From an uncultured virus (IMG/VR IMGVR_UViG_3300046367_000054) (taxonomy: Duplodnaviria; Heunggongvirae; Uroviricota; Caudoviricetes; Crassvirales), in IMG/VR virus record IMGVR_UViG_3300046367_000054: a stretch of 25,828 bases of DNA. The stretch is one strand, 5' to 3'. The position numbers were made by a program, and so were the translations under genes. The notes under the pieces are model-generated. The model was given only the letters and a program-made list of their open reading frames with translations. It ran no database searches and was not told the DNA's origin. Shown one piece after another: positions 3,525 through 22,924 of the stretch. The stretch's first letter is position 1; every line of letters begins with the position of its first letter.

Positions 3525-3541
3525 ATTGAGATTTTATTTGA

Positions 3542-4558: not shown

Positions 4559-4564
4559 TTTTTA

Positions 4565-5263: not shown

Positions 5264-5268
5264 TTATT

Positions 5269-5460: not shown

Positions 5461-5462
5461 AA

Positions 5463-6350: not shown

Positions 6351-6362
6351 ATTTAGGACACT

Positions 6363-6641: not shown

Positions 6642-6646
6642 ATTTT

Positions 6647-7003: not shown

Positions 7004-7004
7004 A

Positions 7005-7705: not shown

Positions 7706-9275
7706 AGTTTCTCATATTACTGATTACACAATCCGCTGATACTATGGTAGTTACAACACTTACAGCGTTTTTAAGCGCCGATTTTGTTACCAAAACCGGA
7801 TCTATAATCCCCGCAGCCACCATATCTATAATATTATTAGTAGTTACATCAACCCCATGCCCAACGGGCATTTTCAAAATTTCCGAATCAGAGGGCATAT
7901 CTATCCCTGCATTCAGTAAAATTTGTCCGAACGGCGCTTTGATAGCTTCTAACAGCAATTTCTCGCCGTCGGTATTTGCAGTACTAAGCAATTGACATGC
8001 ACAGTTTAATAATGCGATACCCCCTCCCGGCACGATACCTTCTTTTAAAGCAGCTTTAGTAGCGTGAATTGCATCTTCTACTCGGTCTTTCTTTTCTTTA
8101 AGCTCCACTTTAGAATCAGCGCCCACCTTAATAACACCAACTTTACCAGAAAGCATTGCCAGCCTTTGTTCAAGCTTCTTTTTAAGGTATGGGTTCGTTT
8201 CATCTTTTATCTTTTTACGTACGTTTTCAATTCGTTTTGTAACTTCTTCGTCAACAGCTTCGATTTGAAGCACCGTACTCTTGTTATCTGTTACTGCTTT
8301 TACAGCAGAACCCAACACGCTAGGGTCGATTAAATCCAAATCATCACCTAATTGCTCATTAATAACAGTAGCGCCGGTCAATATCGCTAGATCCTCAAGT
8401 GTTTCCGCTTTAGTAGCCCCAAAGCCAGGCTGATCTACGATGTTCACTTTGATGTTACCTTTAACTTTGTTAGCTAATAAGGTCGCGTACGGTTGTTGTT
8501 CAACGTCAGCCACGATTAATAGGCTTCGTTTGTTATTTTGGACGTGTTCTAGGACACTTTGTATCTTTCTAATACTTGGTATAGGCGAGCTAACAATTAA
8601 CACGTATGGCGCGTCTAAAACAGCTGTCATTTTATCCTTGTCTGTGATTAAGTATTGTGACTTTAATCCGGAATCAAATTGCACGCCATCAACGAAGTCG
8701 ACAGTAGTTTCATTTGTATCAGACTCTTCCATAAGTACAACCCCATCTCTACCAACAACTGTATAAGCATCACCTATTAAATCGCCCAGCTCTTTATCAT
8801 TATTACAGCTGATGGCGGCTACGTTATTAAGCATCGTTCCTTCAACATCAACCGCATTCTTTTCTAGCAACCCGACAACATTATCCATTGCTTTGTTAAT
8901 GCCGATGCGAATGTTACGTTCTGTATCGCTTCCTTTGTAATCATTTACCTGAGTCAACAATGAATGCGCAAGGACGGTCGCAGTAGTTGTACCGTCCCCC
9001 GCTTCTTTCACAGTGTTGTTAGCCGCCTCTTTAATAAGAGTGGCACCAATATTCTCGACAGGGTCCAATAAGACAACGGACTCAGCTACCGTTACACCGT
9101 CTTTTGTTATGACCGGTCGACCTAAAGCGTCTTCATATATCACGCATTTTCCGGAAGCACCTAAAGTGGTACTAACTGCGCTAGCTAATTTATTGACACC
9201 TTCCATAATTTTTCCTTTGGCAATTACGCCGAAATCGAGATTCTTTACAATCTCACTTGGTTGATTAAATTCCAT
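7692..9275 (-). CDS. groEL: Chaperonin GroEL-like protein
   Basis: ITKDGVTVA, AGDGTTTATVLA, KKDRVEDA, EGIVPGGG and GIIDP motifs; no C-terminal GGM tail. Confidence 0.97.
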   Translation of the reverse strand: MEFNQPSEIVKNLDFGVIAKGKIMEGVNKLASAVSTTLGASGKCVIYEDALGRPVITKDGVTVAESVVLLDPVENIGATLIKEAANNTVKEAGDGTTTATVLAHSLLTQVNDYKGSDTERNIRIGINKAMDNVVGLLEKNAVDVEGTMLNNVAAISCNNDKELGDLIGDAYTVVGRDGVVLMEESDTNETTVDFVDGVQFDSGLKSQYLITDKDKMTAVLDAPYVLIVSSPIPSIRKIQSVLEHVQNNKRSLLIVADVEQQPYATLLANKVKGNIKVNIVDQPGFGATKAETLEDLAILTGATVINEQLGDDLDLIDPSVLGSAVKAVTDNKSTVLQIEAVDEEVTKRIENVRKKIKDETNPYLKKKLEQRLAMLSGKVGVIKVGADSKVELKEKKDRVEDAIHATKAALKEGIVPGGGIALLNCACQLLSTANTDGEKLLLEAIKAPFGQILLNAGIDMPSDSEILKMPVGHGVDVTTNNIIDMVAAGIIDPVLVTKSALKNAVSVVTTIVSADCVISNMRNYAGA

Positions 9276-9298
9276 TTTATTAAATTAATTGATTTGTA

Positions 9299-9547
9299 TT
9301 ATTTTTTAGGCACCTTATAATTTGCCTTGCCTTCTTTCTTTGTTCCTGCACCGTCGTTACCTCTATTTTTGGCAGGCGATTCCCATCTACCATCTTTGTG
9401 ATCCCAATCCTTACCTTTAGCAGAAGGATCTTTACGATGCATTCTTTGTGCATGTGCTTTTTTAGCTCTTCTCTCCGGGGTTTTAGCAAAAGCTAAATCT
9501 CTAGCCGCTTTATCCCGTTTTGCCGTAGCAGATAATTTTTGTGGCAT
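9299..9547 (-). CDS. Small basic protein with HNH-like remnant (82 aa)
   Basis: DWDHKDG...SPAKNRG pattern; operon packing. Confidence 0.6.
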   Translation of the reverse strand: MPQKLSATAKRDKAARDLAFAKTPERRAKKAHAQRMHRKDPSAKGKDWDHKDGRWESPAKNRGNDGAGTKKEGKANYKVPKK

Positions 9548-9556
9548 AATTATTAT

Positions 9557-9811
9557 TTATGATACGTTACTCTTGCTTGATCTCCTAGCGCCCATACCAA
9601 CTTTCTTTTTTGCTGATACTACTTTGCTTTTCTCTCCTTGTGTCATTTCACCCCAAGGCTTTGGAGAATCACTATTAACTCTCTTAGACGGCCTACACGC
9701 TTTTACGTTCTTGTTCTTTGTAGATCCGCAAGGATTACCTTTTTCATCTGTCCACTTCTCATTGAACCATCTTTTAAGAGATGCTCCCTTCTCAGTCTTA
9801 CGTACAGCCAT
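9557..9811 (-). CDS. Small basic phage protein (84 aa)
   Basis: LKRWFNEKW...PCG...CRP pattern; operon packing. Confidence 0.7.
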   Translation of the reverse strand: MAVRKTEKGASLKRWFNEKWTDEKGNPCGSTKNKNVKACRPSKRVNSDSPKPWGEMTQGEKSKVVSAKKKVGMGARRSSKSNVS

Positions 9812-9813
9812 CT

Positions 9814-10089
9814 TTATTTATTCTTTCTGCATTTAGCGATAGCGCCACTAGCATAAGCTGAAGGAAATACGTCATAAGTAGCTTTTACTTTTCTATAGCA
9901 TGCGTCCTTAACTGTTTTCTTAGCAGGAGACTTCGGTGCTTCAATTACACCCTTACCGATTAAAACGTCTTTCTGTGTTACTTTACCGTCACCGCTTAAA
10001 TCATTTAGTTTTTTAGCAGGTGATCCAACCCAAAATCCATTATTGCTCTTAGACCCTAAACCTTGTGGTCCTAATCCTTTCTTATTCAT
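9814..10089 (-). CDS. Small basic protein with EF-hand/dockerin-like loop (91 aa; start revised to ATG at 10089)
   Basis: MNKKGLG start lies 1 nt after the upstream stop; DLSGDGKVTQKD loop; two SPAKK; C-terminal PSAYASGAIAKCRK. Confidence 0.7.
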   Translation of the reverse strand: MNKKGLGPQGLGSKSNNGFWVGSPAKKLNDLSGDGKVTQKDVLIGKGVIEAPKSPAKKTVKDACYRKVKATYDVFPSAYASGAIAKCRKNK

Positions 10090-10090
10090 A

Positions 10091-10429
10091 CTAACAGTTC
10101 CATTTATCAAGCGCCAGCTTCTTTCTAGTCGGCTTGCCGTTTTCATCTTTTAAAGGCCCCTTCATACCAGACATACGCGCACAGAACGATTTACGTCTTG
10201 CAGCATCTTTACTACCCGGTTTCAATTTAGAAGGTGGAGTCGTAACAGCAGTCTGCAGCTTACTGCCAGGATTCTCTTTCCTGTAACTCGCAACCCCTTT
10301 AGCATTCAATCCCCCTTTAGGGTCTTTACCTTCTTTACGTGTCCAAGCAGCAGTTTTCTTTAAAGGCGATTTATCGCAACCACAAGAAGCTGTCTTTTTC
10401 AACGGTGATTTTGTGCATCCACATCCCAT
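10091..10429 (-). CDS. Basic phage protein, DUF6321-like (112 aa)
   Basis: AAWTRKEGK..GGLN.KG..SY...RRKSFCARM...KWNC pattern (family recalled, not searched); duplicated N-terminal CGCxKSPLKKTA. Confidence 0.7.
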   Translation of the reverse strand: MGCGCTKSPLKKTASCGCDKSPLKKTAAWTRKEGKDPKGGLNAKGVASYRKENPGSKLQTAVTTPPSKLKPGSKDAARRKSFCARMSGMKGPLKDENGKPTRKKLALDKWNC

Positions 10430-10450
10430 ATTTTATAATTTTTAGATTAG

Positions 10451-10523
10451 TAGCAAAGCTAGGGAATCGAACCCTATTTGGTTGGCTTATGAGACCAATG
10501 AGATACCTTACCTCCCGCCTGCG
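10451..10523 (-). tRNA. tRNA with CAT anticodon (Met/fMet-like), acceptor stem with a one-base bulge
   Basis: Minus strand CGCAGGC GG GAGG TAAGGTA TCTC A TTGGT CTCATAA GCCAA CCAAA TAGGG TTCGATT CCCTA GCTTTGCT A; anticodon at 10489-10491. Confidence 0.75.
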
Positions 10524-10566
10524 ATATGATTTATATAATCGCATAGTAAATAAAGATATTAAAACA

Positions 10567-10610
10567 GCGACGTTAGCCTACTACTATATAATATAACACC
10601 CTAATGTCAC
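10567..10610 (+). repeat. 44-bp quasi-palindromic site, copy A
   Basis: GCGAC GTTAGCC TACTACTATATAATATAACA CCCTAAT GTCAC. Confidence 0.85.
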
Positions 10611-10892
10611 ACTTTCATACAGTTAAGATAGCTTATGCTTTGAATTTTTTTTGTTACGAAAATAGAACTAAAGCTTTTTTTTGAAACTTGTTAGTTATAG
10701 GGAACTAAAGGGCTATATACCTATTTCTGCGGACATACCCCCTAACGGAAAGTCGTTTATATTTGCCCAGCCCCCATACGTTTTTTGGAAAGCGGTAGAA
10801 AGTTTTGGGTTTTTGGTTTGGTTTGTGTGTACGTATCTACAATTACAATAGCGTAGCGCAGCGAAGCGTAGCGTATAGCATACGCGTATAGC

Positions 10893-10934
10893 ATACAGTC
10901 AGGACACGAGGTGATCATGATAATATATGTGTAA
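10893..10934 (+). promoter_or_regulatory. 42-bp repeated upstream element, copy 1
   Basis: ATACA gtcaggac ACGA ggtgatcat GATAATA tatg TGTAA; ATG at 10953. Confidence 0.8.
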
Positions 10935-10952
10935 CAAGTAAATGATAACAAT

Positions 10953-11096
10953 ATGAAACTACAACAACTAATTAACAGATTAATCGATCGCGGATCATTC
11001 GACCTACTATCTGACTCTGAATTCAAATCATTGGATCGCACAGACCAGATGACAGTAAGAAACAAAGTAACATTCACCTTATTACAAGAATCATAA
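10953..11096 (+). CDS. Hypothetical protein (47 aa, MKLQQLINRL...)
   Basis: Follows element copy 1; TAATG coupling to the next gene. Confidence 0.6.
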   Translation: MKLQQLINRLIDRGSFDLLSDSEFKSLDRTDQMTVRNKVTFTLLQES

Positions 11097-11236
11097 TGAA
11101 ACATACTAGATGGTTAGCTTACGAGCTAAAGCTTAACAAGCAGTTGTATGATCTTGGTTTGATTGACCATGTTGAGTACATCGTACGTAAAATGAAACTA
11201 AAAGTAATGAATAAACAACTACAAGAACATGACTAG
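11096..11236 (+). CDS. Hypothetical protein (46 aa, MKHTRWLAYE...)
   Basis: Overlaps the neighbouring genes at both ends. Confidence 0.55.
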   Translation: MKHTRWLAYELKLNKQLYDLGLIDHVEYIVRKMKLKVMNKQLQEHD

Positions 11237-11429
11237 ACTAAGCGACTTACCAAGACACATATACCTTGATCTTATTGAGGAAGCCAGATGGCAACACGGA
11301 TCTGAATTTGTTAACTCTTGTATCGAGATCGATGCGTGTATCTCAGAGCTGTGTAACTGGGCAACTACCAGGCAAGGTTACGATTACTGGTCCTGGATCG
11401 ATAAAGGTTTGTTCGTGCAAATGAATTAA
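11229..11429 (+). CDS. Hypothetical protein (66 aa), TxQGxxYW motif
   Basis: ORF track; shares its C-terminal motif with 14584-14835. Confidence 0.65.
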   Translation: MTRLSDLPRHIYLDLIEEARWQHGSEFVNSCIEIDACISELCNWATTRQGYDYWSWIDKGLFVQMN

Positions 11430-11482
11430 CAACAAGCGGAGCGCGGAGGCGCGCGAAGCGTGTATAGCAACGCGTATAGCAT

Positions 11483-11524
11483 TTACAGTCTGGGTACGAA
11501 TGGTATTTGATAATATATATGTAA
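11483..11524 (+). promoter_or_regulatory. 42-bp element, copy 2
   Basis: TTACA gtctgggt ACGA atggtattt GATAATA tata TGTAA. Confidence 0.8.
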
Positions 11525-11561
11525 GTAACAAAGAATAATAATAATCAAAATAAATAATCAA

Positions 11562-11747
11562 ATGGAAATTACTTTAAAATTCAATCAAAACTTTAAAAAA
11601 GAATTATATCAAAAAATACTTAATTCTAATAAATTAAAATTCACTATAAGATTTTCAAAAGACAAACTTTATATTAATCAACAAGATCTAGAATATATTG
11701 ACAAAGTATTTGATAGAAGTTGTCTAAGATATAAGATATCTAAATAG
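11562..11747 (+). CDS. Hypothetical protein (61 aa)
   Basis: Lies between element copies 2 and 3. Confidence 0.65.
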   Translation: MEITLKFNQNFKKELYQKILNSNKLKFTIRFSKDKLYINQQDLEYIDKVFDRSCLRYKISK

Positions 11748-11749
11748 AC

Positions 11750-11791
11750 TTACAAACCCAACACGAATGGTATTTGATAATATATATGTAA
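11750..11791 (+). promoter_or_regulatory. 42-bp element, copy 3
   Basis: TTACA aacccaac ACGA atggtattt GATAATA tata TGTAA. Confidence 0.8.
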
Positions 11792-11809
11792 CAAGTAAAT
11801 AATTAAATT

Positions 11810-11917
11810 ATGAATAACTTAGAAAAACTACAAGAATTAAGAAAACTTACAAATGATCAAGTGTTATTAGAATATCTCGATGTTTTAATTACAATTGAAT
11901 TAGAATATCAAGAATAA
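11810..11917 (+). CDS. Hypothetical protein (35 aa, MNNLEKLQEL...)
   Basis: Exactly fills the gap between copies 3 and 4. Confidence 0.6.
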   Translation: MNNLEKLQELRKLTNDQVLLEYLDVLITIELEYQE

Positions 11918-11918
11918 C

Positions 11919-11960
11919 TTACAAACTAAATACGAATAGTATTTGATAATAATAATGTAA
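11919..11960 (+). promoter_or_regulatory. 42-bp element, copy 4
   Basis: TTACA aactaaat ACGA atagtattt GATAATA ataa TGTAA. Confidence 0.8.
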
Positions 11961-11991
11961 CAAATAATAAATAACTTTAAAAACAAATATC

Positions 11992-12333
11992 ATGACAAAC
12001 AAAGAATTATTACAACAAGCGATTTCTAAATTAACTAAAGAAGAATTACAAGCAATCTATCCACCAATTGAGCGAGCAAACTTTGTAGTACGCAAGTCTT
12101 GGCTAGGTCGAAATCAAGTAATCACATTCGTCAACAAGAAAAATCAAAAAGTAACTTATAATCACGACGATGTGTTGAATGTTATGCTACCTAAACTAAG
12201 TATCATGCCATGTTGGATCAAACGCGAGTATTGGTCACAATCAACGGATATGCCTAAAGATGTTCGAAATCTTGCAACGTACGAAGATGTGTTGCCAAAT
12301 GTTGAGGAGTTAGTAGCGGGTGTGATTGAATAA
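11992..12333 (+). CDS. Hypothetical protein (113 aa)
   Basis: ORF track; follows copy 4. Confidence 0.75.
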   Translation: MTNKELLQQAISKLTKEELQAIYPPIERANFVVRKSWLGRNQVITFVNKKNQKVTYNHDDVLNVMLPKLSIMPCWIKREYWSQSTDMPKDVRNLATYEDVLPNVEELVAGVIE

Positions 12334-12346
12334 TCACCCGTTGCTA
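12311..12346 (+). terminator. Stem-loop over the gene end (possible terminator or processing site)
   Basis: TAGTAGCGGG-TG-TGATT gaat AATCA-CCCGTTGCTA; no clear U-tract. Confidence 0.4.
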
Positions 12347-12352
12347 TACACC

Positions 12353-12394
12353 CTACAGACCAAATACGATCAAAGATCGATAATATTAATGTAA
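12353..12394 (+). promoter_or_regulatory. 42-bp element, copy 5
   Basis: CTACA gaccaaat ACGA tcaaagatc GATAATA ttaa TGTAA. Confidence 0.8.
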
Positions 12395-12409
12395 CTAAAA
12401 ATAACTAAT

Positions 12410-12670
12410 ATGACTTTCTTAAACAAACCAATTAAAACAAAACAAGACATCAAAAGCTACATTGACAACTTAGTTAAAAACAACATGCTTTATCACTTTG
12501 AAGATGATGCTAAAGACATTCTAAGCTCTAAGTCTGGTTTCACTGAGCCTGCATTCACACCTGAACAGTGCATACTATTAGACGCTAGATCAATCGAAAT
12601 GCTACGAGTTGACTATGGCTACACTTTTGACTATGCATGTCAAGTACTAGAAGAATTAAACATAATATAA
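12410..12670 (+). CDS. Hypothetical protein (86 aa)
   Basis: ORF track; follows copy 5. Confidence 0.75.
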   Translation: MTFLNKPIKTKQDIKSYIDNLVKNNMLYHFEDDAKDILSSKSGFTEPAFTPEQCILLDARSIEMLRVDYGYTFDYACQVLEELNII

Positions 12671-12685
12671 CTAAAAACAACAAAT

Positions 12686-12865
12686 ATGTATCACCATTTA
12701 TCCAAAAGAGAAGTAAAAGAAATGACTAGAGAAGAATTAATTGATGTGCTAATGTGGAATGATCCCAACGGCACGTATAACGACGAAGACTCAATATGCG
12801 AGTTTGGCGAAATAATGACTAGAGAAGAAGCTGAAGCATTAATAATTGGACAATTTGAACTGTAA
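12686..12865 (+). CDS. Hypothetical protein (59 aa, WNDPNGTY motif)
   Basis: MYHHLSKREVKEMTREELIDVLMWNDPNG...; A-rich leader. Confidence 0.65.
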   Translation: MYHHLSKREVKEMTREELIDVLMWNDPNGTYNDEDSICEFGEIMTREEAEALIIGQFEL

Positions 12866-12868
12866 ACT

Positions 12869-13102
12869 ATGAGAAATATGAGAATTGAAGATGTATTAAC
12901 AGGATCTTGTATGGGTCTTGTAATCGGAGTAGTAATCGGTGCGATAGTATTACGTACCAGTACGAATGAACTGCGCGAACTGGAAGCTGATAACAGTCCA
13001 GTGATCATCTGGAATGATGATTCTGAAAGCATACCAGCTGATGGTGAACTAGTACGAATTGAAATGACTCAAAACGATACTATATACATCGGACCTAAGT
13101 AA
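12869..13102 (+). CDS. Putative membrane-anchored protein (77 aa)
   Basis: N-terminal hydrophobic segment MGLVIGVVIGAIVL. Confidence 0.65.
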   Translation: MRNMRIEDVLTGSCMGLVIGVVIGAIVLRTSTNELRELEADNSPVIIWNDDSESIPADGELVRIEMTQNDTIYIGPK

Positions 13103-13109
13103 CAAAAGT

Positions 13110-13153
13110 GTGACAATAGCCTACTACTATATAACTTAATTAGCTAACGTCAC
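13110..13153 (+). repeat. 44-bp quasi-palindromic site, copy B
   Basis: GTGAC AATAGCC TACTACTATATAACTTAATT AGCTAAC GTCAC, flanked by AAAAGT and CTTTTT. Confidence 0.85.
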
Positions 13154-13246
13154 CTTTTTCTACGATCTTAACTTATGCACCGAAACACGGTGTATAGCAT
13201 ACCTATTCTCCATTGCCAAATCTTGGGTAAATAACTCAATAAAAGT

Positions 13247-13290
13247 GCGACAATAGCCCCCTACTATATTACTTAATACCCTAATGTCAC
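13247..13290 (+). repeat. 44-bp quasi-palindromic site, copy C
   Basis: GCGAC AATAGCC CCCTACTATATTACTTAATA CCCTAAT GTCAC, flanked by AAAAGT and CTTTTT. Confidence 0.85.
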
Positions 13291-13352
13291 CTTTTTCCCG
13301 ATCCTCATATTTTATGTTCGATTCTCTCACTTTTTAGGTGCATGTATAGCAT

Positions 13353-13394
13353 TTACAGTCCAAACACGAGATCAATTTGATAATATATATGAAT
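13353..13394 (+). promoter_or_regulatory. 42-bp element, copy 6
   Basis: TTACA gtccaaac ACGA gatcaattt GATAATA tata TGAAT. Confidence 0.8.
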
Positions 13395-13411
13395 CAAATA
13401 ACTAATATACC

Positions 13412-13558
13412 ATGACTTTAGAACTTAACAACGCTCAAATCTCCGCTCTTAAAGAACTTATATGGGATGAAATCGACCGTTTAGGCGGTATTGACCAATT
13501 ATCCGACGAATTAGAGCAAATACTTCAAGATCTTAGAGTTCCTTCAAATGACGAATAG
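13412..13558 (+). CDS. Hypothetical protein (48 aa, MTLELNNAQI...)
   Basis: ATG 17 nt after copy 6. Confidence 0.6.
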   Translation: MTLELNNAQISALKELIWDEIDRLGGIDQLSDELEQILQDLRVPSNDE

Positions 13559-13615
13559 CGAGATAGCGGGTTATACCCTCAATACTTTTTATTCTAGTAA
13601 ACAAAGTATATCCTC

Positions 13616-13657
13616 TTACAAACTAAATACGAGCTCCGTATGATAATATAAATGTAA
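13616..13657 (+). promoter_or_regulatory. 42-bp element, copy 7
   Basis: TTACA aactaaat ACGA gctccgtat GATAATA taaa TGTAA. Confidence 0.8.
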
Positions 13658-13674
13658 CTAATAACAATTATACT

Positions 13675-13878
13675 ATGGATTATGAATTAACCTCTTATAT
13701 TAACCCTAAATGGCCTGAAAGAGTATATTATAAAGCTACTTTCATGAATGAAACGTATCACCATACCGACAAGGCTATTGTCAATACTTGGTTACGTGAG
13801 AAGTTATTGAATAACGAGTATTATATTGAAAAAGACCGTATAAACCAAAAGGCTATCGATGCCTTCTATAAAAAGTAA
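13675..13878 (+). CDS. Hypothetical protein (67 aa)
   Basis: ORF track; follows copy 7. Confidence 0.7.
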   Translation: MDYELTSYINPKWPERVYYKATFMNETYHHTDKAIVNTWLREKLLNNEYYIEKDRINQKAIDAFYKK

Positions 13879-13881
13879 ATT

Positions 13882-14073
13882 ATGAAGAAATTAAATGGAT
13901 TTGAAAGCTTCCTAGCTACACAGGGATTAGAATTATTAAGAGAACAAATGGTGAATGATATTACTACTTATGTACAACAAGGTAAAACACCTTTATTCAC
14001 GACGGGATTCGTTGACGACTCTATCGATGCGTTAATCAAGAAACTTGAAACATTAACCTTAAAACAAAAGTAA
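13882..14073 (+). CDS. Hypothetical protein (63 aa)
   Basis: ORF track; tight packing. Confidence 0.7.
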   Translation: MKKLNGFESFLATQGLELLREQMVNDITTYVQQGKTPLFTTGFVDDSIDALIKKLETLTLKQK

Positions 14074-14074
14074 G

Positions 14075-14254
14075 ATGCAAGAATACAATGTAGAAATTAT
14101 TGAAACATCAAGTAAGTATGTTACCGTTACGGCATCAAGTGCGGATATGGCGGAACGAGTGGTAAGATCAATGTACAACAGCGAAGAAATAGTATTAGAC
14201 TATAGCGACTTCGATAAAGTAGAATTCAATACGGTTAGGGTCTTACAAAGCTAA
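14075..14254 (+). CDS. DpnD/PcfM-like small protein (59 aa)
   Basis: MQEYNVEIIETSSKYVTVTASSADMAERVVRSMYNSEEIVLDYSDF matches the recalled family pattern (Y.V.I.ET....V.V.A....A...V...Y..EEIVLD..DF). Confidence 0.65.
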   Translation: MQEYNVEIIETSSKYVTVTASSADMAERVVRSMYNSEEIVLDYSDFDKVEFNTVRVLQS

Positions 14255-14284
14255 CACGATCACCAAATGATAATATTAATGTAA
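14243..14284 (+). promoter_or_regulatory. 42-bp element, copy 8
   Basis: TTACA aagctaac ACGA tcaccaaat GATAATA ttaa TGTAA; overlaps the upstream stop. Confidence 0.8.
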
Positions 14285-14302
14285 CAAATAAAAATATATA
14301 CT

Positions 14303-14572
14303 ATGAACAAAGTAATAAAATTAACTAAGCTTTATGAATGTAACGACCACGACCGTTATATCTATGTTGAATACACAAATGGCGAAATTACAACATTAAA
14401 TTACCATCAAGGTATTTGCGAAGACTTTGATCCATTCTATGCCGTAAACGACAAAGACTTACTTAACTTCTACAATGCTATACATGACGCGTTGTACCAC
14501 ATGAGCGAAAACGAAATTGATCAATTCAACTACGCAATCGATATGCACTTTGATTACAAAAATAACTTTTAA
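14303..14572 (+). CDS. Hypothetical protein (89 aa)
   Basis: ORF track; follows copy 8. Confidence 0.75.
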   Translation: MNKVIKLTKLYECNDHDRYIYVEYTNGEITTLNYHQGICEDFDPFYAVNDKDLLNFYNAIHDALYHMSENEIDQFNYAIDMHFDYKNNF

Positions 14573-14583
14573 TACATAATATT

Positions 14584-14835
14584 ATGACTAGACAAGAATG
14601 GTTTAACACATTGACACCTGAAGTACAAGAACAATTTAAATTTAACACCAACCAAAACGAAAGCGCATCCGAAGATTCATTCTTTAAATTCTGGATAGAG
14701 CAAGGCTCTAGAGGTATAACATCTGGTATTGGAGGAGCATTCTCTTTCGGTAATACACCACAGGGCTTCCACTATTGGAATGACATTGACAAAGAAGCAG
14801 GACAATTAATTAAATACGACAATAGCCATGAATAA
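14584..14835 (+). CDS. Hypothetical protein (83 aa), TPQGFHYW motif
   Basis: ORF track; motif shared with 11229-11429. Confidence 0.7.
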   Translation: MTRQEWFNTLTPEVQEQFKFNTNQNESASEDSFFKFWIEQGSRGITSGIGGAFSFGNTPQGFHYWNDIDKEAGQLIKYDNSHE

Positions 14836-14920
14836 AATATTTTTAAGAACGGTACTAATAAGATTTTATAAAGAATTACAAGAAGCTGGGAAATCAGCGG
14901 CTTATGCAATGAGACATTAG
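14828..14920 (+). CDS. Possible 30-aa peptide (MNKIFLRTVL...)
   Basis: Overlaps the upstream gene end and fills the gap before copy 9. Confidence 0.4.
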   Translation: MNKIFLRTVLIRFYKELQEAGKSAAYAMRH

Positions 14921-14932
14921 CGATATAAGTAT

Positions 14933-14974
14933 CTACAAGCTAAACACGATACTTAATTGATAATACAATTGTAA
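14933..14974 (+). promoter_or_regulatory. 42-bp element, copy 9
   Basis: CTACA agctaaac ACGA tacttaatt GATAATA caat TGTAA. Confidence 0.8.
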
Positions 14975-14987
14975 TTAACAAATAACA

Positions 14988-15167
14988 ATGAAAGATATTA
15001 AAAAGAAAAAAGACGGAACCTTAGTTGTTAACGGCGTGCTATACACACCTTATAACGTTAGCGATCTACCAATGAGCTTTGGCTTTAAAACTAGCGAAAC
15101 ACGTGTAACACCCGGCTACGACGAATGGTTTAACTATAAAGGCGTAACTTATATAATCAAAAAATAA
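14988..15167 (+). CDS. Hypothetical protein (59 aa, MKDIKKKKDG...)
   Basis: ATG 13 nt after copy 9. Confidence 0.65.
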   Translation: MKDIKKKKDGTLVVNGVLYTPYNVSDLPMSFGFKTSETRVTPGYDEWFNYKGVTYIIKK

Positions 15168-15169
15168 CT

Positions 15170-15319
15170 ATGGAAAAAGCAATACAAGAAACCGAAAAGT
15201 TTGAACAATGGATGAAAACAAGAGTGCAAAGTGTACATTATGCTAACAACGCTAAAATGACTGTAGCTTATGATCGAGTATTCCAAAACAACTTACGTTT
15301 AACTATAAAATCTAAGTAA
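15170..15319 (+). CDS. Hypothetical protein (49 aa, MEKAIQETEK...)
   Basis: Tight packing on both sides. Confidence 0.6.
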   Translation: MEKAIQETEKFEQWMKTRVQSVHYANNAKMTVAYDRVFQNNLRLTIKSK

Positions 15320-15320
15320 T

Positions 15321-15536
15321 ATGAATATAAGCGAGATCAAATACCGTGCTCAATGTAAAGGTTACTCTAAAGTATTATCATTACAAAGCGACTTTCAACG
15401 AGCGGAACGTGACCTAAAGCTAGGCTTAACCGGCGGCGTAAGTATCGAAGAGATTGAAGCAATACGTGATGGCATTGCAACCGAGATTACAGTATGGAAT
15501 TATATATTTAAACTTATAGAAAACGATAACAAATAA
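15321..15536 (+). CDS. Hypothetical protein (71 aa)
   Basis: ORF track. Confidence 0.7.
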   Translation: MNISEIKYRAQCKGYSKVLSLQSDFQRAERDLKLGLTGGVSIEEIEAIRDGIATEITVWNYIFKLIENDNK

Positions 15537-15542
15537 TAAATT

Positions 15543-15830
15543 ATGAAAAGAGTAGTAAAAGCAGCACCAAAATCGGAAGTAATAGAGTTAAATAAAATAA
15601 AGAACGATTCTTATATTGGTATTAAATGGTCTAGCGGTGAAAAAAGTTGGGTTACACAATCAGCAGATAAAGTATTTAAAGGTACTTATATTGGCGACCA
15701 AAATTTAGCGGGATGTTGGACTAGACCGACTAAGCGAGAATATGTTGGAAACGCAATGGAACAAACAGGAACTGAAGTATATGTTTTTGAAGACAAAGAT
15801 GAATTATTAACTTTTTTATTAGAGAAATAA
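15543..15830 (+). CDS. Hypothetical protein (95 aa)
   Basis: ORF track. Confidence 0.75.
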   Translation: MKRVVKAAPKSEVIELNKIKNDSYIGIKWSSGEKSWVTQSADKVFKGTYIGDQNLAGCWTRPTKREYVGNAMEQTGTEVYVFEDKDELLTFLLEK

Positions 15831-15831
15831 T

Positions 15832-16071
15832 ATGATAACAAGTAAAGAACAAACATTACCTAAATGGTTTACCGGTATGCTATACACTGACGGCGGCACA
15901 GTTAGCAATCCGTTCTCTGGCGAAAGCTACGATCTAACCCCCGCTGAGTTATCCATGTACGACTTTATCATGGGTTGTTCAATGACCGGTAGAATGCAGA
16001 ATGAAATGATGAAAGGCTTAACGTGGTTTCGCAAAGCTAACCCTAAAGCATATATGGTATTATTAGACTAA
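15832..16071 (+). CDS. Hypothetical phage protein (79 aa)
   Basis: ORF track; NPFSGE...YD..G...WFR..NP.AY..LLD pattern. Confidence 0.75.
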   Translation: MITSKEQTLPKWFTGMLYTDGGTVSNPFSGESYDLTPAELSMYDFIMGCSMTGRMQNEMMKGLTWFRKANPKAYMVLLD

Positions 16072-16081
16072 AATATAAATT

Positions 16082-16318
16082 ATGGCATCAAATTATAATG
16101 GTTACTCAAATTACGCTACATGGCGTATAAATAATGATATATTAAGTAAATGCGATTTTGCAGAACCTATAGAAGCATTTGAACTCGAAGATATAGTAGC
16201 AACAGTTGTGTTTCGCGAAGATGAAGAGCAACGGATCATGCAAGAATTTGCAGCGGCATTCATAAGCCAAGTTGACTTTGAAGAATTAGCATATACAATT
16301 AATAAAGATTTTGAATAG
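16082..16318 (+). CDS. Hypothetical phage protein (78 aa)
   Basis: ORF track; N-terminal YNGYSNYATW motif. Confidence 0.75.
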   Translation: MASNYNGYSNYATWRINNDILSKCDFAEPIEAFELEDIVATVVFREDEEQRIMQEFAAAFISQVDFEELAYTINKDFE

Positions 16319-16319
16319 C

Positions 16320-16361
16320 TTACAAACCAAACACGACAACACAACGATAATATAAATGTAA
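16320..16361 (+). promoter_or_regulatory. 42-bp element, copy 10
   Basis: TTACA aaccaaac ACGA caacacaac GATAATA taaa TGTAA. Confidence 0.8.
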
Positions 16362-16378
16362 CAAATAAAAAATTATAT

Positions 16379-16654
16379 ATGAAAACAATTAACACTACCC
16401 AACAGTTTAAAGAATTTGTTGGAGACAATGGCAGATTATTCAGCGTAACATTCAGAAAAACTGACGGATCAATTAGAAAAATGGTTGCAAGACTAAATGT
16501 AAAGTCTTACTTAACCGGCGGCGGCGCAAAATATAATGCAGCTGAGCGTAACAATATCGTAGTATTCTCTATGCGAGATAAAGCATACCGTACAATTAAG
16601 ATCGATAACTTATTGAGTATCAAGGCTAATGGTGAATTAATCGAAAACAACTAA
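16379..16654 (+). CDS. SH3/WYL-like beta-barrel phage protein (91 aa)
   Basis: FSVTFRKTDGSIRKM...AYRTI pattern typical of Sm/SH3-like phage proteins. Confidence 0.6.
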   Translation: MKTINTTQQFKEFVGDNGRLFSVTFRKTDGSIRKMVARLNVKSYLTGGGAKYNAAERNNIVVFSMRDKAYRTIKIDNLLSIKANGELIENN

Positions 16655-16664
16655 ATAAAAATAT

Positions 16665-17270
16665 ATGAACTTATTAACTCAAAATTCGAAATTAAAAAAG
16701 ACAAGCAAATTAACAGGTCTACGAGTATTTAATTTTGGCATTCCTGCATACAAAAGCGCGACGGGTAAATTAACCTGCCCGTTCGCTGCAGAATGTGTTA
16801 AGTTTTGTTATGCTCAAAAAGGTGCATACTCTTGGAGTAATGTTAAGCCAGCGTTTGAAAAACGTTATGAGCTAACTAAGACTGACGATTTTGTTAATGA
16901 GATGAACAAAGAAATAGCTAAGAAAAAACCTGATTATGTACGTGTCCACGACAGTGGCGACTACTACTCCAAAGCATATCTTGATAAATGGATCGAGATT
17001 GCTATACACAACCCGCATGTCAGGTTTTATAGCTATACTAACAGTGTTGAAATGCTAAAATCCGTTGATCTACCTGATAACTACGATATTATCTTTAGCG
17101 ACTCTGGCAAACAAAAAGACAAAATTAATACTAAAGTTGATCGTCATACCAGAATTTTTGCTACCTTAGCCGAGATGACATTAGCTGGCTATGTAAACGC
17201 CATGGAAACTGATCTTAATGCAACTAAGTGGTTTAACAAAACAAATAGAGTAGGATTAATTTTTCACTAA
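16665..17270 (+). CDS. Gp88-like (radical-SAM-like Cys motif) protein (201 aa)
   Basis: N.KL.K, TCPFAAECVKFCYA, VRVHDSGDYY and FYSYT motifs. Confidence 0.7.
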   Translation: MNLLTQNSKLKKTSKLTGLRVFNFGIPAYKSATGKLTCPFAAECVKFCYAQKGAYSWSNVKPAFEKRYELTKTDDFVNEMNKEIAKKKPDYVRVHDSGDYYSKAYLDKWIEIAIHNPHVRFYSYTNSVEMLKSVDLPDNYDIIFSDSGKQKDKINTKVDRHTRIFATLAEMTLAGYVNAMETDLNATKWFNKTNRVGLIFH

Positions 17271-17413
17271 TGAGTAGAACAATAAAGCAAAAAAGTAAAG
17301 CGGTAGCTAAATCATGTAAAAATCATGGTGGTTGCCCGTATTGTGAAGGCAATAGATTGTATAAGCATCGTAAAAAATTGCTTGCTTACAAGCCAAACAC
17401 GATTGACAATTGA
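17270..17413 (+). CDS. Small Cys/His putative Zn-binding protein (47 aa)
   Basis: MSRTIK...SCKNHGGCPYCEGNR; TAATG coupling; its 3' end overlaps copy 11. Confidence 0.65.
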   Translation: MSRTIKQKSKAVAKSCKNHGGCPYCEGNRLYKHRKKLLAYKPNTIDN

Positions 17414-17427
17414 TAATATAAATGTAA
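17386..17427 (+). promoter_or_regulatory. 42-bp element, copy 11
   Basis: TTACA agccaaac ACGA ttgacaatt GATAATA taaa TGTAA. Confidence 0.8.
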
Positions 17428-17446
17428 CAAATAAAAAATATAAATT

Positions 17447-17860
17447 ATGAATCCATTAGATCAAATTTTCGAAATTACCCAATTAAGCGTTATAAATTCT
17501 GCATCAAGCATTTTTACTAAAGACGATGTACACAAGTTAATTACTCAACTACAGTCTAACATTAATAAGCATGCAATCGATGAAAGTAAATTACCTCAGC
17601 AACCAATATCAACACCTAATATATTAGCTAGCGACTTTGCTAAATTTACTTCAGCTGTTCGTAACAAATTATCTTATTACTTAGAAAGTTCAGACCTTGT
17701 TGATTATGATTCTGCAGAATTTGAAATTGAATACAACAATCAGCTTGTACTTAATCATGTTAATGTAGATTTTGATCGTTGGACTGAAGAGTTTGATGAA
17801 TATATGCTGGATAACTTTACAGAAGTATTTGGTGACGATAGTATTATTGCTGAACAGTAA
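17447..17860 (+). CDS. Acidic hypothetical protein (137 aa)
   Basis: ORF track; follows copy 11. Confidence 0.75.
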   Translation: MNPLDQIFEITQLSVINSASSIFTKDDVHKLITQLQSNINKHAIDESKLPQQPISTPNILASDFAKFTSAVRNKLSYYLESSDLVDYDSAEFEIEYNNQLVLNHVNVDFDRWTEEFDEYMLDNFTEVFGDDSIIAEQ

Positions 17861-17867
17861 TAATTAA

Positions 17868-17940
17868 GGACTTATAGCTCAGTTGGTAGAGCGGGACACT
17901 CATAATGTCAAGGTCGTAGGTTCGAATCCTACTAGGTCCA
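17868..17940 (+). tRNA. tRNA with CAT anticodon, probably tRNA-Ile2 (lysidine) rather than Met
   Basis: GGACTTA TA GCTC AGTTGGTA GAGC G GGACA CTCATAA TGTCA AGGTC GTAGG TTCGAAT CCTAC TAGGTCC A; the GGAC acceptor and GTAGG T-arm resemble bacterial Ile2 tRNAs; CCA not encoded. Confidence 0.85.
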
Positions 17941-17949
17941 CAAATGGTA

Positions 17950-18295
17950 TAGGCGCACTAACTTCCAATTTCAATAGAACGCAACAAGGTTAAACATTGA
18001 ATACCTTTGTAAATATAGATTGAGCCTAAGAAAAACGTGGCAGATTAAATCGCTATCGCAATTTACATAAAGATACTATCAGTAATGGTAGATGCGTTGT
18101 TCCCTTGAGAAAGGAATAGTAAAGAAGAGTGTCATTACTTGAATTATGTAGAACATAATCGCTCACTACAACACAAATGAGTTCTCAGCAAGTAGTTAGT
18201 AAGAGGCCCTTACATTTAGTATAACTACGTGACCCTAACTCTCTTATACAAGCTCCGTAACTGATAACTCGGTAAGCTATAAGAAAGAGGGTGCT
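17950..18295 (+). ncRNA. Putative structured non-coding RNA(s) between the tRNA genes
   Basis: No ORF in the track; dense hairpins including GNRA tetraloops (see finding). Confidence 0.45.
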
Positions 18296-18300
18296 AATAA

Positions 18301-18371
18301 GATCGAGTGGCGTAATTGGTAAAGCATAGTAGAGATCCTACTACATATAGGTTCGAATCCTATCTCGGTCA
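18301..18371 (+). tRNA. tRNA-like element with non-canonical anticodon loop (pseudo-tRNA or mimic)
   Basis: GATCGAG/CTCGGTC acceptor, TAATTGGTA D-loop, ATAGG TTCGAAT CCTAT T-arm; anticodon arm TAGTA GAGATCC TACTA. Confidence 0.65.
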
Positions 18372-18375
18372 CAAT

Positions 18376-18417
18376 TTACAAAACAAACACGAATAATAAT
18401 TGATAATATTAATATAA
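18376..18417 (+). promoter_or_regulatory. 42-bp element, copy 12
   Basis: TTACA aaacaaac ACGA ataataatt GATAATA ttaa TATAA. Confidence 0.78.
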
Positions 18418-18427
18418 AAAACAAACT

Positions 18428-18868
18428 ATGAATATATTTTATTTAGACAGAGACCCAGTAAAAGCAGCTGAACAGCATTACAATAAGCATGTTGTTAAAA
18501 TGGTCTTAGAAGCAGCCCAATTACTTTGCACAGCGCACCATTTAGCTGGTAATCCAAGCGATGTTCCATACAAAAAAACACACATGAATCATCCATCTGC
18601 CGTATGGGTACGATCATCAGTAGCTAATTATATGTGGTGCTACGAATATATGTTAGCTCTTGGGGCTGAATATACTAAACGTTACGGTAAGCATCATTTA
18701 ACTATTGCAAAGTGTCGTGAGATTCTTTCTAATGTACCGCATGCTATACACGCTGTCGACTTTTGCGATCCACCACAATGTATGCCTGACGAATACAAAA
18801 TGATCGATGCTGTTGATGGTTACAGAAAATATTACGAAATTGGCAAAGCACACTTAAAAGATAAATAA
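18428..18868 (+). CDS. Pyrimidine dimer DNA glycosylase / T4 endonuclease V-like protein (146 aa)
   Basis: MNIFYLD..P..AA....KHVVKM.LE..QLL, THMNHP...W, EY..RYGK.H and PPQCMP motifs. Confidence 0.75.
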   Translation: MNIFYLDRDPVKAAEQHYNKHVVKMVLEAAQLLCTAHHLAGNPSDVPYKKTHMNHPSAVWVRSSVANYMWCYEYMLALGAEYTKRYGKHHLTIAKCREILSNVPHAIHAVDFCDPPQCMPDEYKMIDAVDGYRKYYEIGKAHLKDK

Positions 18869-19074
18869 TGGAATTATACAGTTTAGAAGATATTTCAGGT
18901 TATACAAATATAAACTCTGATACATTATTGTCACGCGCTAAAACATTGGGTATCAAGCCGTTTAACAAGCGATCTCAAACATATCTTTATACAAGATCAC
19001 AAGCGGGTTGTATTATTGGCAACTACACTTACAGTAATGATAACGAATTTTTAATATTAGAAAGTAAATTATGA
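18868..19074 (+). CDS. Possible small HTH-type DNA-binding protein (68 aa)
   Basis: YSLEDIS....I...TL..RAK.LGI pattern. Confidence 0.55.
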   Translation: MELYSLEDISGYTNINSDTLLSRAKTLGIKPFNKRSQTYLYTRSQAGCIIGNYTYSNDNEFLILESKL

Positions 19075-19328
19075 AAGAAGAAGAAATCGAAAGAATTGCA
19101 GAATTAGTATTCCAAAAGCTAGTAAAAAAGCAAGAAGAATGGGATAAAGAATTTATGCTAGAAATAAAAGATCAAGTAGTAATGGATATTTCTATTAAAG
19201 GTACAACAGATATTCAAACTAGAATTGATAACTTGCAAGCTCATCTTGATAGGTTAATTGAAAAAGAGTTGTATACTGAGGCACAAGCCGTAAAAGAGCG
19301 CATTGATGAACTTAAAAAAGAATTATAA
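19071..19328 (+). CDS. Coiled-coil protein with C-terminal UVR (UvrB/UvrC)-like motif (85 aa)
   Basis: LQAHLDRLIEKELYTEAQAVKERIDELK. Confidence 0.55.
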   Translation: MKEEEIERIAELVFQKLVKKQEEWDKEFMLEIKDQVVMDISIKGTTDIQTRIDNLQAHLDRLIEKELYTEAQAVKERIDELKKEL

Positions 19329-19441
19329 TGAGCAAAGCGAAACAACTTGTTGAACAGTATGCTGAAGAATATCTCGAAGAGAAAATAATTTATGAAACGT
19401 TATACGGCATCGTTGAGTATGAAAAGTGTGACGTAAGCTAA
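19328..19441 (+). CDS. Hypothetical 37-aa protein (MSKAKQLVEQ...)
   Basis: TAATG coupling to the upstream gene. Confidence 0.5.
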   Translation: MSKAKQLVEQYAEEYLEEKIIYETLYGIVEYEKCDVS

Positions 19442-19472
19442 TTAATTAATAATAGTAATAGGCTAATGTCAC
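19428..19472 (-). repeat. 45-bp quasi-palindromic site, copy D (inverted relative to A-C)
   Basis: Reverse complement reads GTGAC ATTAGCC TATTACTATTATTAATTAATT AGCTTAC GTCAC; contains the ATG at 19466. Confidence 0.85.
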
Positions 19473-20089
19473 AGTACGATAGAAAATTAGAACACTTGAA
19501 TAAAAATAGAATAATATATCGGCAAAACCCTATAACAGATAAACCAACACAAAAGTTTGACTGGGGTGACTATTACGAAAACGGCACATTTGAATGTTAC
19601 GATCTATTCAGAAGCAAAGCTAAGATAACCACATACAAATCATTAAAATGGCATTTATATGTTTTATGGTATCTTAATCATCAAATGAATCAAGATCAGT
19701 TTATTGAGGTCGCTAGGTTTATCTGCGATAAAACAAACGGATTTGTTACTTTTAATGTTAGCGAGCAATTATTACAAAGTATGGTTTACGATGTTAGCTT
19801 ACAAGATTTAGAAACCCCTCCACATAATAAGAATCGTAAGATTATATTTAAGGACAATTCTGGGCTTAGTTTAAACGAAAAACTATCTATAGTTGGACAA
19901 ATAGCAGGCAAGAGTAAAATAGTCTCAGATTCGGACATATATGATGCGATGCTATACATGCACGATGCAGATCAAAAGATCACGATTAAAAAGATTGCGG
20001 ATTATTTCCAATGTGCCACAAGAACTATACATCGTAATATGAGTAATGAATTAAAAAAAGAAAAAGAATTACTAAACCAAAGTTTATGA
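19466..20089 (+). CDS. DNA-binding protein with C-terminal HTH (207 aa), possibly Rep-like
   Basis: ITIKKIADYFQCATRTIHRNM helix-turn-helix. Confidence 0.7.
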   Translation: MSQYDRKLEHLNKNRIIYRQNPITDKPTQKFDWGDYYENGTFECYDLFRSKAKITTYKSLKWHLYVLWYLNHQMNQDQFIEVARFICDKTNGFVTFNVSEQLLQSMVYDVSLQDLETPPHNKNRKIIFKDNSGLSLNEKLSIVGQIAGKSKIVSDSDIYDAMLYMHDADQKITIKKIADYFQCATRTIHRNMSNELKKEKELLNQSL

Positions 20090-22165: not shown

Positions 22166-22924
22166 ATGAAAAGCTATAATCTAGATAATTACTTACGTTA
22201 TAAAGACGACGTAAAGGAAATCAACGAGCGAATAGAAATAAAAGCTTATCACGAATTAACAAGAGACGAGTTGATAGCAAAGTTTTTACCTTTAGTTGAA
22301 AATCTAGCTAGGAAGTTTTCTACAAGCGATCAAGCTTCTGGTGTTATGGATATAACTGATATGATACAAGAAGGATCTATTGGTTTAATACAAGCAGTTG
22401 ATAATATCACGTGGGCTACAATACTTGAATCTGACGAGCCATTACAAACTCTTAAGTCATTCTTATCTAAAAGAATAAAAGGGGCGATACGAAGAGCGAT
22501 TGATATTAATAGAGGCGCAATAAAGCTTCCAGAACATAAGTTGGCAGAGATAAGACGCAATCCTGATGATGATAAAATGGTTGCTTTGTTTTTCAATAGC
22601 ATATTCTTTAGCATCGATGATAACGATGACGATGAGGAAGAGAATCCTATCTATCAGATAGAAGATAAAAGTAAGAAGTATAATATAAATTTATTGAATA
22701 CTTATTTGCTTAGCTTAATGAAGCAACACTTATCACAAAGACAATACGATGTACTGCGCTTGTCATACGGATTAGATACAGATAAGAAGTCGGCTAAAGA
22801 GATTGCACAATACATTAATGTAACAGTACCAACGGCAAATGTTATTGTATCACAAATTAAAAAAGAAGCAATAGATACTTTAATATCTAATGTTGATAGA
22901 GATCAAGTTATTGATTATCTTTAA
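22166..22924 (+). CDS. Sigma70-family RNA polymerase sigma factor (252 aa)
   Basis: Region 2 LPLVENLARKF...DMIQEGSIGLIQAVD...RIKGAIRRAI; region 4 LSQRQYDVLRLSYGL...KEIA. Confidence 0.9.
   Translation: MKSYNLDNYLRYKDDVKEINERIEIKAYHELTRDELIAKFLPLVENLARKFSTSDQASGVMDITDMIQEGSIGLIQAVDNITWATILESDEPLQTLKSFLSKRIKGAIRRAIDINRGAIKLPEHKLAEIRRNPDDDKMVALFFNSIFFSIDDNDDDEEENPIYQIEDKSKKYNINLLNTYLLSLMKQHLSQRQYDVLRLSYGLDTDKKSAKEIAQYINVTVPTANVIVSQIKKEAIDTLISNVDRDQVIDYL

Follow-up and report, generated by a model that had tools for sequence, protein, structure and literature searches.

Four inverted repeats on two divergent gene arms

The 25,828-nucleotide stretch of the uncultured virus record IMGVR_UViG_3300046367_000054 (IMG/VR), referred to here as the window, is phage-like, has a G+C content of 34% and is organized as two divergent gene arms. 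Genes on the minus-strand arm (3-10429) specify a tail-like protein longer than 1,174 residues, virion-like proteins, GroES, GroEL, and DUF5872 and DUF6321 proteins. The plus-strand arm, which starts at about 11229, contains many small genes, two tRNA genes, a gene for a 207-residue protein with a C-terminal helix-turn-helix (HTH) domain, and genes for thioredoxin, a sigma-70-family factor, Erf, an exonuclease, an HNH protein and the start of a primase-like protein. Family searches of the window proteins also place an SSB-like protein gene in the operon headed by the HTH gene. Four copies of a 44-45-bp inverted repeat, sites A to D, punctuate this layout. Direct inspection of the sequence finds them exactly at the positions and in the orientations (A, B and C one way, D the opposite way) given by an earlier sequence-only reading, which had also correctly located A between the divergent arms, B and C in a gene-free gap, and D over the start codon of the HTH gene. 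Below, we describe the element and its conservation, and discuss why it is probably a promoter-operator cassette.

Site A (10567-10610, minus strand, 44 bp) contains a -35-like GTGACA at 10610-10605, a 16-nt spacer and a -10-like TATAGT at 10588-10583, and points toward the ATG (10429) of the gene that opens the minus, chaperonin/virion arm. Site B (13110-13153, minus strand, 44 bp), with GTGACG at 13153-13148 and TATAGT at 13131-13126 in the corresponding places, begins 8 nt past the stop codon of a plus-strand gene (12869-13102) and therefore faces the 3′ end of that gene. Its tandem partner, site C (13247-13290, minus strand, 44 bp; GTGACA at 13290-13285, TATAGT at 13268-13263), lies 137 bp to the right, and both fall within the gene-free gap at 13103-13674. 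Site D (19428-19472, plus strand, 45 bp) has GTGACG at 19428-19433, a 17-nt spacer and AATAGT at 19451-19456, and its second arm holds the ATG (19466) of the HTH reading frame (19466-20089). Because the ATG lies inside this arm, the predicted transcription start falls at about 19461-19466, giving a message that would be leaderless or have a leader of at most 5 nt.

A 21-base pattern representing the left side of the element has four exact matches in the window and five when up to three mismatches are allowed, against 0.33 expected; none of 100 shuffled sequences reaches five. The fifth, at 14189-14209, is not accompanied by a second arm. Overall, the element forms a long dyad around an AT-rich centre. 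Its arms form an inverted repeat of about 10-12 bp with the half-site TGTGACAnTAG(C), as derived from the unbiased side of the pattern-found sites and from 22 D sites found through the HTH protein, two sets that agree. The sequence-only reading had described inverted arms around an asymmetric core; the inverted arms hold up, but the symmetry extends inward to a T-A-A shared by both halves, and clear asymmetry is confined to about two to three positions. The arms lie approximately three helical turns (~32 bp) apart, one over the -35-like box and the other over the start point of the predicted promoter.

The two arms occur as a pair. A pattern scan of IMG/VR returned at least 129 stretches, most of them from contigs of at most 60-70 kb; the counts of 124, 119 and 109 sites used here refer to distinct sites among the IMG/VR matches listed. 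The second arm is present in 121 of the 124 sites, and in a search that combined one arm with a -10-like box it stood at the fixed offset in 48 of 70 distinct matches, further on in 8, and was absent from 14. Element lengths of 43, 44, 45, 46 and 47 bp are represented by 6, 56, 44, 16 and 2 of the 124 sites, respectively, from which most spacers work out at 16-17 nt. At arm position 7, where the TGTGACAnTAG half-site varies, the bases of the two arms are correlated when both are read on the same strand (A..A in 47, T..T in 36, T..A in 15 and A..T in 5 of 121 listed sites). Each element thus tends to carry one AAT and one ATT half-site, a pattern that could reflect clade structure or functional asymmetry.

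Conservation of the element and of an HTH-sigma gene pair

The element is kept in a very large clade of uncultured phages with genomes of ~60-70 kb. Five records of relatives contain one to five matches each and, where complete, reproduce three co-oriented copies and one inverted copy, with the inverted copy on the start codon of the 207-residue HTH gene. The A-type site lies ~56-63 bp before the first gene of the minus arm in relatives, a tandem pair resembling B and C is also found in two of them (G001 and G003), and the B-type placement is repeated at four loci (L139, L141, L142 and L143). Among 119 listed IMG/VR sites, 41 lie before a gene (typically by 48-78 nt), 31 lie on the HTH start codon, 24 lie between 4 nt overlapping and 28 nt behind the stop codon of a convergent open reading frame (ORF), and 23 are unclassified.

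The link between the site and the HTH gene was also followed through loci found by protein searches, which are unbiased with respect to the site. A site on or just before the HTH start codon is present at all 18 such loci on contigs of metagenome-assembled genomes (MAGs) that include upstream sequence, with the same placement at L004, L008, L009 and L144, and at 63 or more of 76 metagenome loci under a strict regular expression; inspected by eye, most of the others have an arm of variant sequence or a start that is shifted by ~20 nt. One locus (L144) of a distant homologue, P0150, in the 25-37% identity class has the same site, and other scans for loci of homologues in this class returned none. 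The association proposed by the sequence-only reading is therefore deeply kept, relatives' genes do have the site at their start, and its persistence there makes autoregulation plausible.

A further indication comes from three loci (L005-L007) at which two genes, a 143-residue ORF and a 174-residue ORF, are inserted directly after the ATG within the site. The site itself has not moved and lies 1.09 kb ahead of the displaced HTH gene. Retention of the site while the first gene changes is the behaviour that a promoter would be expected to show. In this region (1867-3022 in L007, also present in L005 and L006), the C-terminus of the 143-residue ORF is HTH-like and that of the 174-residue ORF carries an HNH-like motif when read by eye; the insertion leaves a remnant ORF of 7 codons, and the HTH gene has a new N-terminus.

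The 207-residue protein (19466-20089, plus strand) has two parts: residues 1-148 form an N-terminal domain whose fold is not recognised, and residues ~150-207 form a three-helix HTH at the C-terminus. Its AlphaFold model has a predicted local distance difference test (pLDDT) score of 93.6. In VIA-align, resemblance to known structures is confined to residues 150-207, a generic three-helix HTH with Z scores up to 6.6. Foldseek returned nothing at E ≤ 0.001 for the whole protein against the PDB. Modelled alone (pLDDT 89), the N-terminal 148 residues reach Z scores of 5.1 at most, with primase-polymerase helix bundles and the ColE2 Rep DNA-binding domain at 4.1-4.5, the background level of the tool. 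No family in Pfam, PHROGs or NCBIfam accommodates the protein, the sole match being a sub-threshold SpoIIID-type HTH, and a protein atlas returned only viral hypothetical clusters and assorted HTH families. The family is very large and unannotated: 7,999 of 8,000 scored candidate clusters in a 90%-identity protein collection are homologues, and a 50%-identity collection holds 249 representatives.

The constant neighbour of this gene is a phage sigma factor. In the window, the sigma-70-family gene (22166-22924, plus strand), which retains regions 2 and 4, lies 2.1 kb downstream of the HTH gene and is separated from it by nine small genes. Its only NCBIfam assignment is the sigma-70 superfamily model TIGR02937 (60.4 bits), below the cut-offs of named subfamilies. 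In most relatives the two genes adjoin or overlap. All 33 loci that are long enough have a sigma gene behind the HTH gene in the same direction, and in 17 of these the genes are at most 17 nt apart or overlap, although some loci duplicate one contig. In hand counts of the metagenome loci, the sigma gene is within 750 nt of the HTH gene in 67 of 76 and within 17 nt in 42 of 76. With a site on the start of the HTH gene and a sigma gene behind it, D is situated as the putative promoter region of a conserved HTH-sigma operon, and the HTH protein is the most likely candidate binder of the arms. A homodimer prediction for the HTH protein scored 0.00, a result that gives no verdict and counts neither for nor against binding.

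Several features of the window bear on its wider context. The first gene of the minus arm, downstream of A, is the DUF6321 gene (10091-10429, minus strand). GroES (7442-7705) and GroEL (7692-9275), both on the minus strand, form a phage-encoded pair, the latter matching its PHROG with E = 2e-134 and sharing 42% identity with GroEL of Flavobacterium phage vB_FspM_immuto. In a collection of cultured phages, the matches of GroEL and of the tail-like protein are all distant, and no relative of the window was found by DNA, by HTH protein or by sigma protein. An Rfam search of the window returned the two tRNA genes, tRNA-Met (17868-17941) and tRNA-Ile (18301-18372), and nothing further. Two gene-free stretches are unusually long, ~800 bp around A (10430-11228) and ~570 bp around B and C (13103-13674). 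Contigs from RNA libraries of relatives contain several small insertions and deletions at 13295-13551, as fits non-coding DNA.

A Bacteroidota host is hinted at by two observations. All 52 gene starts in the window lack a Shine-Dalgarno sequence and have A-rich upstream regions, and five of 19 loci with the HTH module are on MAGs labelled Bacteroidota. The labels of the 19 loci span many phyla, as expected of mis-binned phage contigs. A 117-kb contig of a Flavobacteriaceae MAG (G006:C7, loci L165-L167) was considered as a prophage and rejected, being a head-to-tail phage concatemer of a ~62.5-kb unit, with repeats 94-99% identical and no host flank. A loose fixed-spacing pattern run on two MAGs in the same context gave noise only.

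A candidate promoter-operator cassette and its alternatives

Read on the strand opposite to the orientation chosen in the sequence-only reading, each site presents a -35-like GTGACA, a spacer of 16-18 nt and a -10-like nATAGT. A generic sigma-70 scan of the minus strand scores A, B and C at 10, 9 and 10 of 12 matches, all with 16-nt spacers. The direction of this likeness agrees with the placement of genes. Of 109 listed IMG/VR sites flanked by 250 nt on each side, 80 have the start of an outward ORF on the predicted downstream side (31 within the arm and 49 within 200 nt), as opposed to 15 on the opposite side, none of them in the arm. In all 22 D sites found through the protein, the last hexamer position of the gene-ward half is T, preceded by an A two positions before (20 of 22) and a G or A one position before (22 of 22); these two asymmetric bases are absent from the other half. 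The placement typical of a promoter, upstream of and pointing into a transcription unit, is found at A- and D-type sites and not at the B/C type. That typical of an operator, an inverted repeat over the regulator's own promoter and start, is seen in the arms over the -35-like box and over the +1/ATG.

We propose, with a rough probability of 0.55, that the sites are promoter-operator cassettes whose arms bind a dimeric regulator, most likely the HTH protein. Each site would be a one-way promoter inside a two-fold symmetric operator, acting on double-stranded DNA and read by a sigma factor of the host (its primary one) or of the phage. The promoter would be read toward the left arm as defined in the sequence-only reading, such that the far arm supplies the -35-like GTGACA and the near arm covers approximately +1 to +12. 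Under this arrangement, D would drive an essentially leaderless operon, with the HTH gene first, followed by sigma and the recombination and replication genes, and A would drive the chaperonin/virion arm. B and C point as A does, from the far side of a small early-gene island and antisense into it; they may be additional promoters of the minus arm, may silence the island or may hold a protein road-block at its end. The arms would serve as docking sites for a dimer of the regulator, most likely the HTH protein encoded at D, which would thereby set its own level and co-regulate all four promoters.

Several observations weigh against this proposal. The generic promoter scan is not enriched in the window (53 sites versus 50.5 in shuffled sequence), so that the hexamer match alone is of little weight, and the weight lies in the context. 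Only 14 of the 22 unbiased D sites have A at the key second position of the -10-like hexamer, and since the best-kept inner T-A-A is shared by both halves, it may belong to a protein-binding site rather than to a -10 box. B, C and at least 24 similar sites are directed at the 3′ end of a convergent gene, an unusual placement for a promoter. Recognition by the host sigma would be doubtful if the host is a member of the Bacteroidota, whose primary sigma uses a different consensus. A search of the sites for Bacteroidota-type boxes gave no meaningful pattern. Another phage or host factor could also be the binder of the arms.

The RNA evidence consists of Logan contigs from four freshwater RNA-library runs, which carry neither transcript start nor strand. 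They cover the plus arm, and 8534-10135 is uncovered in three of the four runs, where missing cover is no evidence. Contigs bridge B/C and D, and in these read-through RNA is indistinguishable from DNA carry-over. One contig with an adapter end begins at 10962 rather than at A, a weak hint. Summed contig depths reach thousands over 17612-18679, which contains the two tRNA genes and their spacer, as against tens elsewhere, and several variant joints fall at 17946-18166; the depth could come from cross-mapping of host tRNAs or from an abundant small RNA.

The alternative that survives best, although we consider it rather unlikely, is that the sites are promoters specific to the phage sigma factor, activating its own operon at D and the virion arm at A. 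The HTH protein would then be a partner of sigma (an anti-sigma factor, co-activator or adaptor) that does not bind the arms, and the second arm would serve contacts of RNA polymerase and sigma or initial transcription. This idea is in line with the presence of a gene for a sigma-70-family factor (regions 2 and 4), with its close pairing with the HTH gene behind D across the clade, and with the consistent deviation of both boxes from the ideal hexamers. A sigma gene behind a promoter read by the same sigma is a known layout for alternative sigma factors. The first sigma could be supplied by read-through, given that RNA-library contigs bridge D from upstream.

A second, distinct promoter-like motif found at the early genes counts in favour of the promoter-operator proposal and also of this alternative, as two promoter classes need two readers. 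This motif spans ~35 nt and occurs in 11 copies between 10904 and 18387, all on the plus strand (10904, 11761, 11930, 12364, 13364, 13627, 14254, 14944, 16331, 17397 and 18387). It comprises an ACACGA or ATACGA box, 9 nt, an extended -10-like GATAAT(AT) box that often follows a T, and a TGTAAC-like box in the start region. Most copies end 15-25 nt before a start codon, and the motif is kept in relatives (L139-L143). It is probably the promoter class of the early genes. The first copy, ~300 bp rightward of A, and the RNA contig that begins at 10962 together indicate that rightward transcription of the plus arm probably does not start from A. What recognition by the phage sigma alone leaves unexplained is the obligatory mirror copy of the -35 arm over the start point and a symmetry that reaches the inner T-A-A.

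The promoter-operator proposal can be combined with a role for the phage sigma, and we offer this more specific version as speculation that is, on balance, doubtful. The HTH protein and sigma would constitute a previously undescribed two-part promoter switch, in which an HTH dimer clamps the two arms and gives or withholds the promoter to the phage-sigma holoenzyme, timing the sigma operon, the virion arm and, from B and C, antisense silencing of the island. The D palindrome would hide the AUG in upstream read-through RNA, and only leaderless transcripts from D would be translated. For such plus-strand RNA across D (19421-19486), the predicted fold is a hairpin (-16.3 kcal/mol, z = -5.2) in which the AUG region of the HTH gene is base-paired. 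A transcript started inside D would be without the 5′ arm of that hairpin.

An improbable alternative is that the sites are purely protein-binding sites with no promoter activity. A dimer or tetramer bound to them would block or insulate transcription, similar to "stoperators", and repress transcription or translation at the start of the HTH gene, and the resemblance to -35 and -10 boxes would be a by-product of an AT-rich palindrome. Most of the conserved positions are indeed common to both halves, the arms occur together, hexamer pairs are equally frequent in shuffled sequence, and the 24 B-type sites just behind a convergent stop codon fit this idea well. A symmetric road-block requires no direction, however, and the sites are strongly biased in orientation toward gene starts, with the conserved asymmetric positions always on the gene-ward half. 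In D-type sites, moreover, the 137-bp gap before the HTH gene contains no other obvious promoter, and the site is retained before inserted foreign genes.

The sequence-only reading had favoured an origin of replication, with the 207-residue protein as initiator, the four sites as origin or iteron-like sites and autoregulation at D, a reading that now appears very unlikely. The gene does head an operon with Erf, an exonuclease, an SSB-like protein and the start of a primase-like gene, its N-terminal domain has the weak fold likeness to primase-polymerase bundles and ColE2 Rep noted above, and one protein-atlas row (score 0.90) is named as a replication initiation protein family. Those fold scores are at background level, however, and no Rep or initiator family was matched in Pfam, PHROGs, NCBIfam or PDB sequences. 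The sites are dispersed over 8.9 kb at the heads and ends of transcription units rather than clustered as iterons by an AT-rich unwinding region, their orientation follows gene direction, and the constant neighbour is a sigma factor rather than a helicase or primase.

Action at the RNA level, as intrinsic bidirectional terminators or another hairpin signal, is highly improbable. A-tracts and T-tracts flank many copies, B lies just after a gene end, and the predicted RNA folds of B and D on the plus strand and of the minus strands are better than those of shuffled sequences (z = -2.8 to -5.2). The stems are interrupted, however, the loops span 22-24 nt, and A and C fold only weakly on the plus strand (-6.9 and -6.2 kcal/mol). 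All four sites are unlisted in a terminator scan, and A, between divergent gene starts, has nothing to terminate. The arms lack the compensatory change that an RNA or DNA hairpin calls for: C-A combinations outnumber C-G at position 2 by 25 to 10 (Fisher p = 0.21), and only 17% of the combinations at position 7 are Watson-Crick. The missing covariation, the weak folds of A and C and the terminator scan together indicate a protein site on duplex DNA rather than a hairpin signal.

Inversion or deletion of the segment between D and A/B/C by a site-specific recombinase, raised as an alternative in the sequence-only reading on account of the inverted D and of arms flanking an AT-rich centre, is scarcely tenable, as the same arrangement is found in the window and in the genomes of four relatives, Pfam named no recombinase among the 52 proteins of the window (itself part of a genome), no listed joint of the RNA-library contigs, the only material compared, falls at the sites, and the 20-bp spacer is unlike the core sites of tyrosine or small serine recombinases.

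Relation to known regulatory systems

The element and the HTH-sigma pair are conserved throughout a very abundant and entirely uncultured clade of aquatic phages. If the promoter-operator proposal is correct, it would identify the main regulatory node of these phages, and their genomes would be split into two promoter classes. It would also provide a compact, portable promoter/regulator pair with a leaderless first gene, accessible in vitro without the host. The cassette is, in addition, a handy sequence marker for clade membership and for the orientation of the early and late regions. A limited full-text literature search found no published description of the element, and several known systems offer partial parallels.

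The lambdoid phages, with PL/OL and PR/OR read under the control of Cro and CI, similarly place one promoter-operator module at several outward-facing units. As proposed here, the first gene behind one module encodes an HTH protein that binds the operators, and one message, that of cI from PRM, is leaderless. Lambdoid modules contain three 17-bp operators, whereas the element described here would be one long dyad with arms ~32 bp apart that bracket the -35 and +1. Further differences are the 207-residue protein, whose N-terminal domain has no recognised fold, the absence of any sign of lysogeny and the pairing of the regulator with a sigma factor. In Streptomyces phage phiC31, repeated similar promoters share a conserved inverted repeat (CIR) that is bound by the phage repressor, an HTH protein. 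The phage is temperate, and its CIRs are 17 bp long and numerous; here, each genome has three to five elements of 44-46 bp, one of them on the start codon of the regulator.

Autoregulated operons of extracytoplasmic function (ECF)-type sigma factors resemble the HTH-sigma operon in that sigma is co-transcribed, and often translationally coupled, with a small regulator, and in that the same promoter type heads the regulon. In the phage operon, the partner gene comes first, its product is a soluble HTH protein rather than a membrane anti-sigma factor, and the predicted promoter is palindromic. The stoperators of mycobacteriophage L5, dispersed sites for the gp71 repressor that in some cases lie just behind genes and act on elongating RNA polymerase, provide a possible model for B and C. 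Stoperators are 13 bp long, asymmetric and ~30 in number, unlike B and C, which are full copies of the promoter-like palindrome.

A parallel by description, rather than by comparison of sequences, is found in Cellulophaga phage phi14:2, a crAss-like phage of a Bacteroidota host. It is reported (bioRxiv 10.1101/2020.03.07.982082) to have few copies of an extended, conserved tripartite middle-promoter motif located upstream of middle and late genes, in which two blocks resemble the -35 and -10 of primary-sigma promoters and which is kept in related uncultured phages. Both cases thus involve few copies of an extended -35/-10-like motif conserved among relatives. The phi14:2 motif is described as tripartite, whereas the present element is an inverted repeat with a start codon inside. 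The phage described here further differs in having a genome of ~65 kb, no crAss-like markers in the window and a sigma factor of its own. As predicted from sequence, the architecture of the cassette differs from that of each of these systems: one 44-46-bp dyad encloses the putative promoter, the start codon of the candidate regulator lies in one of its arms, and a sigma gene is coupled to that regulator.

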